Counted from the first letter of the stretch, positions 10,741 through 13,662 are shown. The stretch is DNA of 64,000 nt from an uncultured Planctomycetaceae bacterium (GCA_963813715.1 CAWFAK010000008.1:480001-544000); one strand, 5' to 3'. Notes: generated by a model not told the origin, from the sequence alone. Numbers and translations are program-made.

Positions 10741-10782
10741 GGTAATGGGGTACTTTGAAATAGTTTGAAACGACCCCACCCC

Positions 10783-11703
10783 TCAGTTTCCTTGCTGCAA
10801 GCGGTCTAGCAGTTTTTGAATCCACTGCTCTCGCTTGGCTTTAGCTCGTTCCTTGGCCGCGTATTCCGTCACGGCGTTGTAAAGATCGTCCATGCTCCAA
10901 AGCTGGTCAACGACTCCCGCAGCCATCGCCGGGGTGCATTTCAACGAGCCATGAACCCGGCAGAAGTTGTACGTGGCGACGTGAATCGCCGTTGCTGCCG
11001 CAAGGTTCTCCAGCTTCTTTGAGAAGCCAAGAGCCAGCCGGGTGAACCGCTTCATAAAGGTGCGAATCGTGAGGTTGTTCCGCTCTACGTGACTGGTGCA
11101 TATCGTCGCGAGGTTGCCTATCCCGTTGACGTTTATCCGTTCCGTCCCGGCCAACGTCGGCGGAGCGTAGCGGCCCGTGTTGTCGGAATACTGCTTTATC
11201 AAAACGCCATGCCGAACCGCGCCGTGGAAGTGCCGACGAATCGCCGGCTGGTAGGGGCCAAAGCCGTCAGTCGAAAGCTGGGGCCGATCTTCTCCCAACG
11301 TCGCTGGCGTGACCAAGCGCCCCTTGAGGTCCCGAATGAAGGTGTCCGTCGTTTCCCAAGTGCGATTGCCGATCGCGAACGTGACAACCAGCTTGCTTTC
11401 GGTGTCCAAGGCGACGAATAAGTACTGGTCGCCGATTCGCGCCGTGTCGAGATGGCGCTTCTTGGCGTGGCCCTCCTTGATGCCGCAAAACGTCCAAATC
11501 TCGTCGAGCTGGACGTGATCGAGGCTGAGGTTCACCAGCTTGGCGTCGAGGTATTGGCGACACTGATTGCCGAAGCGGACGACGATCCGCGTGATGGTCT
11601 TCTTTTCGATCCCGGTCAACCGCATGGTCGAGCGGATCGAGTTACCTTCGGACAGCAGGCGCAGGACTTGGATCTGCTTGTCGCGAGACAGTAAATTGGC
11701 CAC
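10783..11703 (-). CDS. IS1-family DDE transposase (single ORF, N-terminal HTH)
   Basis: EGNSIRSTMRLTG HTH, QLDEIWTF, LSTDG, TSHVERNNLTIR, RFTRLALGFSKK, YNFCRVH, TPAMAAG; likely GTG start at 11703 (ORF open to 11724). Confidence 0.92.
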   Translation of the reverse strand: MANLLSRDKQIQVLRLLSEGNSIRSTMRLTGIEKKTITRIVVRFGNQCRQYLDAKLVNLSLDHVQLDEIWTFCGIKEGHAKKRHLDTARIGDQYLFVALDTESKLVVTFAIGNRTWETTDTFIRDLKGRLVTPATLGEDRPQLSTDGFGPYQPAIRRHFHGAVRHGVLIKQYSDNTGRYAPPTLAGTERINVNGIGNLATICTSHVERNNLTIRTFMKRFTRLALGFSKKLENLAAATAIHVATYNFCRVHGSLKCTPAMAAGVVDQLWSMDDLYNAVTEYAAKERAKAKREQWIQKLLDRLQQGN

Positions 11704-11729
11704 AGGATAGGCCCTTGTGAGCAAGGGCG

Positions 11730-12075
11730 AATCCGCTAGAATGGCAGATGTCTGGGCTGCACTCTGGCGGAAACGCCGGTTTGTGGTTCACGCCCCGACG
11801 TTGCTCTAACAACGCCGGGGTTTTCATAGAAAACGCGGAAGGCGTGGGTTCCGACCCCACCGGCTCTAACCGGCCCCTTCGGCAGCTTATAAGGCTGCTG
11901 CGCCGAGCCAAACGCGGGACGCCTTCCGCACTCGAAACGATGATCGCCTTGCCCCGGAGGGGCTTCGCCTCGCAAGCTTGAGGCCCTCCGGGACTGGCAG
12001 TCGTTGCCCCACCAACGACGATCAACTTGGTGAGGCTCGAAACCCTTCTCATTGCTGCGATCCTTTCGTTAGCCG
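11730..12075 (-). ncRNA. Putative structured leader RNA of the transposase transcript
   Basis: Series of hairpins: CCCGGAGGG/CCCTCCGGG, GTCGTTG/CAACGAC, TGATCG/CGATCA, CCCCGGCGTTG-TTAGAG-CAACGTCGGGG, GTTTTC/GAAAAC; no convincing ORF. Confidence 0.4.
11836..11927 (-). tRNA. tRNA-like cloverleaf, anticodon UAU, 8-bp acceptor / 4-bp T stem (allo-tRNA-like); possibly a pseudogene
   Basis: GGAAGGCG...GCAGC-CTTATAA-GCTGC...CCGG-TTAGAG-CCGG-TGGG-GTCGGAA-CCCA-CGCCTTCC-G; canonical anticodon loop, long variable region, non-canonical T loop, no encoded CCA. Confidence 0.6.
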
Positions 12076-12080
12076 ACCCA

Positions 12081-12109
12081 ATGCTACTTACGTCACGACG
12101 TAAAATCAA
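12081..12109 (-). promoter_or_regulatory. Sigma70-type promoter facing the tRNA-like leader and transposase
   Basis: TTGATT-N17-TAGCAT on the minus strand. Confidence 0.6.
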
Positions 12110-12124
12110 TACGTCGGCGACGTA
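12088..12124. promoter_or_regulatory. Two palindromic operator-like sites
   Basis: TTACGTC-AC-GACGTAA (12088-12103) and TACGTC-GGC-GACGTA (12110-12124). Confidence 0.6.
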
Positions 12125-12162
12125 ATTCCGGATAAAACGTGGATAAAGCCACCACTTGCCAG

Positions 12163-12190
12163 TTGACCATCTGGATTTAGTCGATACACT
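12163..12190 (+). promoter_or_regulatory. Sigma70-type promoter for the passenger genes
   Basis: TTGACC-N16-TACACT followed by purine-rich GAAAGGGA and ATG at 12211. Confidence 0.55.
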
Positions 12191-12210
12191 GTCGGAAAGG
12201 GACCAAATCT

Positions 12211-12976
12211 ATGGCAAAAACCCGCAGCCCAAACTACCCGTCGCTGAATCTCGAAACGGCAATTGAAAAGGCCCAGACTCTATTTGGCCACATCGGCCGC
12301 CACCCAGCCGGTTTCAGCGTTGCGGTCGGCCATCTGGGCTATTCTGCGAACAGCAGTTCCGGACGCACTACGATTGCAGCCCTGCGAGCCTTCGGGCTGC
12401 TGGACGCGGCAGAGGGCGAAAGCGAGTCGATGGTGCGAATGTCGCCGCGTGGCCTCGACATCGTTGCGGACTTTCCGGTGGGACACCCCGATCGTCGAGC
12501 CGCGATCCAAGCCGCAGCATTGGCTCCCAAGCTGCACCAGGAATTGCGCACACGATACGGGGCGTCATTGCCCTCCGAAGACGAAATAAAGCGGTTTTTG
12601 GTGCGAGAGCGCGAATTCAACGACAACACAGTCGCGCAATTCATCGCAGAATACAAAGAGACAATTGCGTTTGCCGGTCTTGACGTCGACCAAAACGCCG
12701 GCAATGATGGGAGTGGGCAGCAACTCGAAGAAGACCACCGACAACAACAGAAGCCGCCAAAGCCCACGGAACGACGCATGGCACCTGGAACCAAAGAGGA
12801 CGTTTTTAGCCTCGATGAAGGTGCGGTCGTGCTTCAGTGGCCGCAACGACTCAGCAGAACGAGCGCGCAAGAACCTTCAGGACTGGCTTGCTTTAATCGG
12901 CCGCAAGATCCAACGCGCCGCCACTTATGAACCGCCGCCACCGGCCCCGAACGATGACTCATCGTCTGAGAATTGA
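12211..12976 (+). CDS. IS passenger protein, putative winged-helix DNA-binding; probable frameshift near 12870
   Basis: RSPNYPSLNLETAI...LGYS...IAALRAFGLLD; C-terminus LQDWLALIGRKIQR continues in the frame ending 12976; RBS present. Confidence 0.7.
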
Positions 12977-12997
12977 ATCCGCCGCTAGAATGACGGC

Positions 12998-13261
12998 ATG
13001 AGCGACGAACCGAAGAAGCGATCTAGGTGGTGGACGCGGGCGTGGCCTTGGTGGACGGTGCTCGCGCTGCTCGTGCTGTATCCGCTGTCGAGGGGGCCAC
13101 TGACTTGGATTTACTTGCGCACTGTTCCCGGAACGGCATCGCACCGCGCCATTGAGCGCTTCAGCGTGATCTATAATCCGCTGATGCAGCTGCGTCAGCA
13201 CTCGGAGCTGGTGGACGACGTTGTGCACGAATACGAGGACTGGTGGATTTTACCCCCCTGA
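12998..13261 (+). CDS. Small membrane protein, IS passenger (paralogue 1)
   Basis: MSDEPKKR, hydrophobic helix, YPLSRGP, IYNPL, YEDWW; TAGAAT 6 nt before ATG suggests a leaderless transcript. Confidence 0.75.
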   Translation: MSDEPKKRSRWWTRAWPWWTVLALLVLYPLSRGPLTWIYLRTVPGTASHRAIERFSVIYNPLMQLRQHSELVDDVVHEYEDWWILPP

Positions 13262-13325
13262 ACTCCAAAACCCAAATCCCGAATGATTGCACTGAACTCC
13301 CGTGCCAACCCGCTGAGGTGACGGA

Positions 13326-13613
13326 ATGAGCGACGAACCTAAGAAACGTCGGTCTTGGGCGTGGACGACGCTGGCACTGCTATTACTACTGATGGCCTAC
13401 CCGCTGTCGATGGGGCCGGCACTCAGGTATTCCTCGGATTTTCGAAGCGTCTTTTGGGGCGGTTTTTACGAGCCTGTCGCCCAGCTAAGCGAAACGTGGC
13501 GGCCACTCGAAAATCTGAAGGATTGGTACATGGGCCTCTGGGGCGTAGGGTACGACCGAAATCCCGCGACGGGCGTTCGCCGATTGACGATGCCAGTGGG
13601 GCGGGCGCGCTAA
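13326..13613 (+). CDS. Small membrane protein, IS passenger (paralogue 2)
   Basis: MSDEPKKR, hydrophobic helix, YPLSMGP, FYEPV, YMGLW; GAGGTG RBS. Confidence 0.75.
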   Translation: MSDEPKKRRSWAWTTLALLLLLMAYPLSMGPALRYSSDFRSVFWGGFYEPVAQLSETWRPLENLKDWYMGLWGVGYDRNPATGVRRLTMPVGRAR

Positions 13614-13662
13614 AATTCCCGTGCCAATCGCCCAAAACCGTGATTCAAACGCCCCCACTACC

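Follow-up and report, generated by a model that had tools for sequence, protein, structure and literature searches.

Within a stretch of 64,000 nt from an uncultured Planctomycetaceae bacterium (GCA_963813715.1, CAWFAK010000008.1:480001-544000; hereafter the window, meaning the whole stretch analysed, whose coordinates are used below), we studied a 2922-bp insertion sequence (IS) of the IS1 family at positions 10741-13662. From left to right, the element comprises a left inverted repeat (IRL), a transposase gene on the minus strand, a 486-bp non-coding stretch (11725-12210) that holds a conserved structured RNA, three open reading frames (ORFs) on the opposite strand, here called orfA, sm87 and sm95, and a right inverted repeat (IRR). 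The RNA belongs to the conserved core of the IS and not to its cargo, and by architecture it fits the allo-tRNA(UAU) class. We consider it probable that the element represents a clade of IS1-family transposons with an allo-tRNA(UAU)-like RNA at its core and a variable passenger slot.

A complete IS1-family transposon with passenger genes

The IRL, located by a profile search of the genome, lies at 10741-10780 (plus strand); it starts with GGTAATGGGGTAC, and its first part reads GGTAATGGGGTACTTTGAA. The IRR lies at 13613-13662 (minus strand), reads GGTAGTGGGGGCGTTTGAA inward from position 13662 and has a conserved inner part of about 55 nt that includes TTGGCACGGGA. The two ends are identical at 19 of their first 40 positions, chiefly within the first 20. 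The element is flanked by a perfect 9-bp target duplication, as the 9-mer CGGTCCGGA occupies both 10732-10740 and 13663-13671. IS1-family elements have ends starting with GGT and target duplications of 8-9 bp, and single-ORF members with passengers are known as transporter IS. The present ends likewise start with GGT (GGTAATGGGG on the left and GGTAGTGGGG on the right), and the duplication is of the expected length.

The transposase gene (10783-11724, minus strand) is a single ORF of 313 aa without a stop, with a probable true start at the GTG at 11703. Its product carries a helix-turn-helix (HTH) at the N-terminus without a zinc finger. The Pfam profile DDE_Tnp_IS1 (PF03400) matched it with 38.8 bits against a cut-off of 24.1, while the NCBIfam profile transpos_IS1 scored 59.8 bits, under its cut-off of 100; the transposase is therefore a distant member of the family. 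The catalytic residues D74, D153 and E214 are invariant in 29/29 distinct relatives. The classical IS1 layout, with two ORFs joined by a -1 frameshift and an N-terminal zinc finger, was not found; a single ORF runs from the HTH onward, which suits the single-ORF subgroup better than the classical type. Only distant Acidobacteriota relatives (loci L030 and L032) have a zinc finger in addition at the N-terminus.

Taken together, the inverted ends, the DDE_Tnp_IS1 match above cut-off, the perfect duplication and the passengers between the ends show that this is a complete, probably autonomous IS1-family transposon with passenger genes. The preliminary description, drawn from the sequence before any search, was thus correct in calling it a complete element with an intact transposase. 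It differs from the IS1 family as generally defined (a DDE_Tnp_IS1 transposase, GGTnnTG ends, a 9-bp duplication) in having no programmed two-ORF frameshift, no N-terminal zinc finger in this branch, a core tRNA-like RNA gene, site-specific insertion into a repeat and head-to-tail abutted arrays.

The full element is a single copy in the 7.49-Mb genome of 18 contigs. The genome paralogues of the transposase, two intact (74% identity) and one degraded, all lie on contig C15. The clade occurs mainly in the window's own family, and the closest named relatives are Planctomycetaceae metagenome-assembled genomes. The left junction (10725-11028) is spanned without differences by a contig from a soil metagenome, and a blastn search of a plasmid collection with the whole element gave no match.

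A structured RNA of the allo-tRNA(UAU) class accompanies the transposase

The preliminary description had noted about 500 bp of structured non-coding DNA with a tRNA-like RNA in it, and both observations proved sound. A block of about 98 nt at 11831-11928, on the minus (transposase) strand, recurs beside every transposase copy and in related loci; the covariance-model match spans 11826-11933. Nine copies gave a cloverleaf-like consensus fold in which 17/30 pairs are compensated. When the alignment was extended to 38 rows, of which 36 are distinct, pairing was seen in 94.3% of 1063 cells and changes on both sides in 25/30 pairs; none of 500 shuffles reached the observed values, and slid controls paired at 43-61%. 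On the transposase strand 253/268 cells pair, 23 of them as G-U, compared with 236/268 and 6 G-U on the opposite strand, and the G-U counts therefore assign the RNA to the transposase strand.

We searched this genome with the covariance model and obtained four strong matches, each beside one of the four transposase copies. Among 151 genomes of the family, 27 gave strong matches (64-118 bits). Seven more had matches of 33-37 bits only, and the three of these that were inspected look like ordinary tRNAs of class II, the anticodon being TCA or TGA; the model also finds real tRNA-Sec/Ser-like genes at about 36 bits. Of 26 RNA loci, two of which duplicate earlier loci, 18 have a transposase within 1.5 kb, always downstream and on the same strand, and 8 have no transposase match within that distance (E <= 1e-3). 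The RNA sits 100-470 nt upstream of the transposase gene and persists among transposases down to 36-50% identity. A phylum-wide sample of 150 other genomes gave no match to the RNA model at E <= 1e-8; the RNA is present in two loci (L018 and L019) from other Planctomycetota. The RNA was previously taken for cargo, but it belongs to the transposase module of the whole IS clade.

The RNA is not a canonical tRNA of the 7/5 cloverleaf type that tRNA finders recognise. Its acceptor helix has 6+2 pairs around an internal mismatch (9 positions) and, together with a T stem of 3 bp, forms a 9/3 branch. The D-like stem has 5 pairs with a small loop and the variable arm has 7 pairs, with compensatory changes in both; the variable arm changes more than any other helix. 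A further helix of 3 bp surrounds the D and anticodon arms, giving a five-stem junction. The TTATA of the anticodon loop is kept in 31/33 distinct copies, while the stems covary and neighbouring loop positions vary, a pattern in the alignment which suggests that the anticodon is under selection. The discriminator is G in 30/33 distinct copies, and the T loop is the canonical TTCRA in about half of the copies.

According to the descriptive passages of Mukai et al. (Nucleic Acids Res 2017; PMC5389517), allo-tRNAs combine a 12-bp acceptor branch, arranged as 8/4 or 9/3, with a long variable arm and with a D stem that is long as in tRNA-Sec and bears a small loop, and the allo-tRNA(UAU) subgroup has a UAU anticodon, a five-stem junction and weakened stems. 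Every one of these features is found in the RNA of the clade, including the stem-weakening changes. We thus conclude that the RNA fits the allo-tRNA(UAU) class by architecture, as described in those passages; the preliminary description had not recognised the unit as a described one. The likeness extends to soil-bacterial hosts and to nearby transposon-related and toxin-antitoxin genes (PMC5389517). However, the hosts named there are Clostridia, Proteobacteria and Acidobacteria, and the link to mobile elements or toxin-antitoxin genes is, in the same passages, only suggested, whereas the RNA studied here is a constant component of one defined Planctomycetota clade of IS1-family elements, with matching ATA codons in the transposase gene.

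Other tRNA-like sequences were observed near members of the family. On the transposase strand of L054 (1167-1240) and L055 (1609-1680), the allo-tRNA(UAU)-like RNA is immediately preceded by a second tRNA-like sequence, which has a TTGCA loop and a T arm of canonical form (GGTTCGACTC). The pair recalls the polycistrons of irregular tRNAs mentioned in PMC5389517; in the window, this place holds only a long hairpin (11951-11992). L019 gave a weak Rfam tRNA-Sec match (22 bits). A match of window 11810-11888 to Rfam Proteo-phage-1 was rejected as noise (13 bits against a cut-off of 42). In distant transposase relatives from other phyla (41-48% identity), tRNA genes callable by ARAGORN adjoin the transposase gene: upstream of it lie a class-II Leu-UAG tRNA (L017:4641-4729), an ACU tRNA (L024:4664-4738) and a Trp-CCA tRNA (L023:4655-4730), the last of which may be a plain host gene, and downstream of it lies another ACU tRNA (L022:5848-5920), ACU being an unusual anticodon. 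Outside the window, ARAGORN called a tRNA with anticodon UUA, which reads the UAA stop, at C8:182792-182863, a possible suppressor or allo-tRNA.

Rare ATA codons are fixed near the catalytic glutamate of the transposase

We then compared codon use in an alignment of 31 transposases (29 after removal of two duplicates). At column 222, which is I208 in the window, in the context T-I-CTSHVER six codons before E214, 16/27 isoleucine codons are ATA, as compared with 3 ATA among 130 isoleucine codons in eight other conserved isoleucine columns. Among transposases with the RNA in cis, ATA stands at column 222 in 13/17, and the remaining four carry ATA at column 205. The window's transposase has ATA at I176, I197, I202 and I208, i.e. 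in 4/314 codons, against 2.3 per 1000 in the long ORFs of the contig. In the distant relatives with other tRNAs (L017, L024, L022 and L023), the codons CTA, AGT and TGG were not seen to cluster around the catalytic region.

The fixed rare codon matches the fixed anticodon, and from this we infer a translational link. The site of action would be the ribosome, where the RNA would act on the rare AUA codons that closely precede the catalytic glutamate, and the output or quality of the transposase would depend on the element's own tRNA-like RNA; on codon and anticodon patterns, we regard this as a tentative possibility. It might supply AUA decoding. Alternatively, as it has a serine-type identity set (the long variable arm and G73), it might cause misincorporation at I208, which would hold activity down as copies accumulate. 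The specific form of this proposal, a private codon-tRNA pair in which the AUA codons of the element's own transposase are decoded by its allo-tRNA(UAU), either correctly or as serine, with transposition gated or self-limited by the dose of the RNA, must be called doubtful.

The region between the transposase and the passengers

A promoter-like site (TTGTGA-16-TAGAAT; 11715-11742, plus strand) diverges from the transposase gene, and its -10 box is kept in L054 (TTAGAAT) and L055 (TACAAT). It precedes a candidate short RNA antisense to the transposase leader (11748-11814, plus strand), which ends with a hairpin (11783-11810) and TTTT; judging from these elements, an antisense RNA of about 65 nt could be made here. 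Most relatives have a CopG-type ribbon-helix-helix (RHH) gene on the opposite strand at this place, and its stop abuts or overlaps the 3′ end of the allo-tRNA(UAU)-like RNA. The RHH gene is missing in the window, in the paralogous C15 element E2, in L054 and in L055; the -10 box and the hairpin with its T run (11783-11814) are kept in the window, L054 and L055. These RHH-less copies recall RNA-OUT of IS10/Tn10 and other antisense controls of IS, in that a short divergent unit with a -10 box and a terminator lies over the transposase leader, but in most relatives the position holds a protein gene instead.

Beyond the RNA, a second conserved non-coding block (11940-12070) is common to the window, L054 and L055 and contains the covarying long hairpin at 11951-11992, as seen in these three sequences only. 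Two palindromes at 12088-12124 (TTACGTC-ac-GACGTAA and TACGTCG-g-CGACGTA) had been put forward as operators of a regulator. They were not found upstream of the orfA homologues in L054, L055, L030 and L032. A second promoter-like site, TTGACC-16-TACACT (12163-12190, plus strand), lies ahead of orfA.

The passenger slot is variable

The constant parts of the clade are the IRL, the single-ORF DDE transposase, a short divergent unit, the upstream allo-tRNA(UAU)-like RNA, a variable passenger slot and a small leaderless-type gene by the IRR. The divergent unit is either the RHH gene or, as in the window, a promoter and terminator hairpin only. The closest transposase relatives (72-75% identity) keep the RNA and carry other passengers. 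The passengers of relatives include PIN_3 with HTH_17 (a PIN toxin-like pair), an extracytoplasmic function (ECF)-like sigma factor, an AAA_21 ATPase, Trypsin_2 and DUF4145. A further observation concerns a Gemmataceae element of the clade, whose passenger region contains an Rfam int-alpA RNA (RF02996; L018:3726-3791) at 36.8 bits against a cut-off of 35.8.

Three opposite-strand ORFs had been claimed for the window, and all three were found (12211-12930, 12998-13261 and 13326-13613), except that the first is frameshifted as assembled. This gene, orfA, encodes a winged-helix protein of an unnamed family and spans 12211-12976 (plus strand); the frame-1 ORF ends at 12930 and the +1 frame continues to 12976. 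Compared with its homologues it has one extra base near 12871-12874, and the conserved C-terminus (LQDWLALIGRKIQRA) lies in the +1 frame, so orfA is not intact as assembled. The frameshift may be an assembly error; matching contigs from sequencing runs leave 12093-12918 uncovered. About 100 unnamed homologues of 250-330 aa were identified. No Pfam family covers the protein (DUF5343 reached 13.4 bits, far under its cut-off), and PHROGs and NCBIfam gave nothing for the passengers. The AlphaFold2 model has a pLDDT of 85.5 and shows a winged helix plus a helical domain. Foldseek gave no match at E <= 0.001, and structure comparison returned MarR (Z 8.5, residues 13-90), BrxA (Z 7.9) and the FokI recognition domain (Z 7.9; both residues 3-162), Z values in the range that is common for the comparison tool. 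The earlier suggestion of a regulator therefore stands in so far as orfA is a plausible DNA-binding protein with a predicted winged HTH fold. Relatives of orfA occur in 11/151 family genomes and lie beside the RNA-transposase module in the window and two others only. In L054 and L055 the gene occupies the same place, and in L030 and L032 its neighbour is a related transposase; the IS copy that is repeated in L030 seems to stop short of it.

The two small genes, sm87 (12998-13261, plus strand; MSDEPKKR..., one hydrophobic helix, LYPLSxGP motif) and sm95 (13326-13613, plus strand), are paralogues with 38% identity over 69 residues and are of the single-helix membrane type, in agreement with the twin membrane proteins of the preliminary description. 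They belong to a family of Planctomycetaceae proteins of about 80 aa with an invariant MSDEPKK start and YPLSxGP after one hydrophobic helix. In every delimited element a small gene adjoins the IRR and reads towards it, although it is not always of the sm87/sm95 family. Directly before the ATG of sm87 lies a cassette promoter motif of leaderless type (AATCCGCCGCTAGAATGACGGC; 12975-12997, plus strand) that has 44 copies in the genome. In its fuller form, (AATCCG)CCGCTAGAATGACGGC-ATG(AGCGACGAAC), it precedes 44 genome ORFs (<=2 mismatches in 17 nt), with window copies at 12975-13010 and, degenerate, at 13310-13340. Its -10 box stands 6 nt before the ATG, and the transcripts would therefore be leaderless. 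The 44 motif-led ORFs have a median length of 74.5 aa, and in 26 of them there is a strongly hydrophobic segment. Though many show no sequence relationship, the first codons, for MSDE, are shared at the DNA level. The same motif lies 18 nt before a tRNA(UAU) gene at C8:418596-418667. A contig of 235 nt from a metatranscriptome library matches window 13416-13650 (the second half of sm95 and part of the IRR) with 0 differences, and may derive from library DNA.

The element inserts at one site of a dispersed repeat

The element interrupts a dispersed repeat of about 200 bp, the left part of which lies at 10617-10740 (plus strand) and the right part at 13663-13737. Units of the repeat stand in tandem here, and the element splits the third. 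The one before it (10420-10616) is uninterrupted at the site (...GAATCCGGTCCGGACAC...) and holds the 9-mer once, and thus serves as a paralogous empty site. The insertion has a fresh look, in agreement with the earlier claim that it is recent. The repeat (window 10250-10740 and 13663-13737) is dispersed and often tandem with internal hairpins, and was found as 35 BLAST pieces at about 12 genome loci; its window copies had no Rfam match. In a same-genus genome, the flanking genes are syntenic and enclose an intergenic region of about 1040 bp without IS ends, RNA or repeat. The empty site proposed as a check was thus obtained as an IS-free syntenic locus, but not in its exact form, since the same repeat without the insert was not found in the two same-genus genomes searched, where the intergenic DNA is unconserved.

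The insertion point is one specific near-palindromic site of the repeat, TCCGGTCCGGA. The flank ...gtgtccggaccg|GGTAGTGGGG recurs, at an identical position of the repeat, in four IRR junctions, namely those of the window, C7:437078, C5:657290 and C5:559595; the case at C7:437078 is a 791-bp transposase-less element with both ends present and the same duplication site.

Further members of the family were observed nearby and elsewhere. In L014 (1-6821, compared with window 10817-16693), a close relative with 90% DNA identity in the IRR-side flanking gene, a different member of the same IS clade lies in the same intergenic region and orientation, with a different junction sequence; its transposase has 76% DNA identity to that of the window and is frameshifted, and its passengers are Trypsin_2 and DUF4145. 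Contig C15:100400-115500 (loci L002-L006 and L012) holds a head-to-tail array that comprises an 857-bp transposase-less element (104652-105508), E1 (105527-108717), E2 (108727-113071) and then a degraded copy. In the array, 0-18 nt lie between an IRL and the next IRR; where the flank reads ...CGCCCCGCA, the gaps are 9 and 18 nt. In the whole genome, about 20 IRR-type against 6 IRL-type ends were found by profile searches, and one or two small genes follow many of the IRR-type ends.

Alternative explanations for the RNA and its neighbours

Several observations weigh against a decoding role of the RNA. The host has its own canonical-looking tRNA(UAU) gene, so AUA is readable without the RNA of the element. 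L029, L030 and L032 also have ATA at column 222, and no such RNA was found in cis to them. Rare codons are common in mobile genes anyway, the hot columns besides 222 were chosen after the data had been seen, and the codon counts are not independent because the sequences are related. ARAGORN called 0 tRNA genes and Rfam found no tRNA in the window at E up to 10; the single-sequence fold is unremarkable (z = -1.36), and the T loop of the window copy (GGGGTCGGAACCC) is degenerate. No conserved promoter could be recognised ahead of the RNA, and the sole RNA-library contig covers 13416-13650 only, outside the RNA. Moreover, as stated in PMC5389517, six allo-tRNA(UAU) variants were all inactive in translation in E. 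coli after conversion to CUA. Such inactivity, like the non-canonical T loops of many copies, would also suit a cis-acting part of the transposase leader, that is, a signal for processing or insulation which, once cut by RNase P or RNase Z, would uncouple the transposase message from passenger read-through and may work with the divergent RHH gene or the antisense unit. The RNA is always on the transposase strand 100-470 nt upstream of the gene, the RHH stop abuts or overlaps its 3′ end in most copies, and where the RHH gene is absent, the interval from the RNA to the transposase gene retains a divergent -10 box and a terminator hairpin. However, processing needs the acceptor and T region and not a fixed anticodon, yet TTATA is kept in 31/33 copies, and the fixed ATA codons of the transposase gene would be left unexplained; we judge a leader signal of this kind rather unlikely. 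That the RNA is a decaying, hitch-hiked tRNA gene without function hardly deserves credence: no ARAGORN or Rfam call was obtained and a pseudogene of the class is reported for one strain in PMC5389517, but compensatory changes in 25/30 pairs contradict decay, and the RNA persists across transposases down to 36-50% identity.

The preliminary description had joined the RNA, the twin membrane proteins and the regulator with its operators, here the winged-helix orfA, into one functional passenger unit merely carried by the IS. The order transposase/RNA/orfA does recur in L054 and L055 (transposases 50% and 42% identical), orfA adjoins a related transposase in L030 and L032, and a small protein related to sm87 lies about 1.3 kb from the RNA of L052. 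Variable cargo nevertheless largely refutes such a unit, which we hold to be very unlikely. The RNA accompanies the transposase whatever the cargo (PIN_3 with HTH_17, the sigma factor, the AAA_21 ATPase or Trypsin_2), the closest relatives keep it with other genes, and orfA lies by the module in 2/26 RNA loci besides the window. In 8/10 other family genomes the orfA relatives have neither RNA nor transposase within 1.5 kb, the window orfA is frameshifted, the palindromes are missing at homologous loci, sm87-type genes preceded by that same motif are found in many locations that lack orfA, and the repeated IS copy of L030 seems to end before orfA. Random cargo with no recurring RNA or regulator had been named as the outcome that would speak against the unit, and half of this was seen: the cargo varies, while the RNA recurs. 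By analogy with the bridge RNA of IS110 and the omega RNA of IS200/605, where a structured RNA beside the recombinase gene goes with site-specific insertion into repeats, the RNA might instead guide or scaffold target choice, which would account for insertion into the repeat of about 200 bp. The conserved RNA adjoins the transposase gene, its variable arm is the most changeable helix, and four insertions share an identical site. Pairing of the RNA with target or donor DNA was not found, however: the longest RNA-target complementarity is 7 nt and was matched by 155/300 shuffles. A 10-nt identity, GGTGGGGTCG on the transposase strand, does link the T-arm region of the RNA (11855-11864) with the inner IRL (10771-10780), and 0/300 shuffles were as good, but this match is missing in the paralogues E1 and E2. 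The tandem C15 elements have other flanks with near-identical RNAs, and the enzyme here, unlike those systems, is a DDE IS1-type transposase with a 9-bp duplication whose HTH could read the site itself. A guide function is thus highly improbable.

Significance

Literature searches found no report of an allo-tRNA(UAU) as a fixed part of an IS1-family clade together with fixed AUA codons, and no paper joining allo-tRNA with transposase, or the IS1 family with a tRNA-like RNA and transposase. The RNA class itself is already described. For the IS1 family it is unusual that a DDE enzyme is combined with a structured RNA inside the element, with insertion strictly at one site of a dispersed repeat and with arrays of elements placed head to tail. 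Placement in this clade explains the neighbourhood of allo-tRNA(UAU) genes, because the passenger slot often holds toxin-antitoxin-like genes. Allo-tRNAs serve as chassis in genetic-code engineering, and to our knowledge the UAU group is the largest of them and is without a known natural role. The fixed ATA codons of the transposase turn a vague association between allo-tRNAs and mobile elements into a testable mechanism, and a private codon-tRNA pair, if true, would be the first biological role for the most abundant allo-tRNA class.

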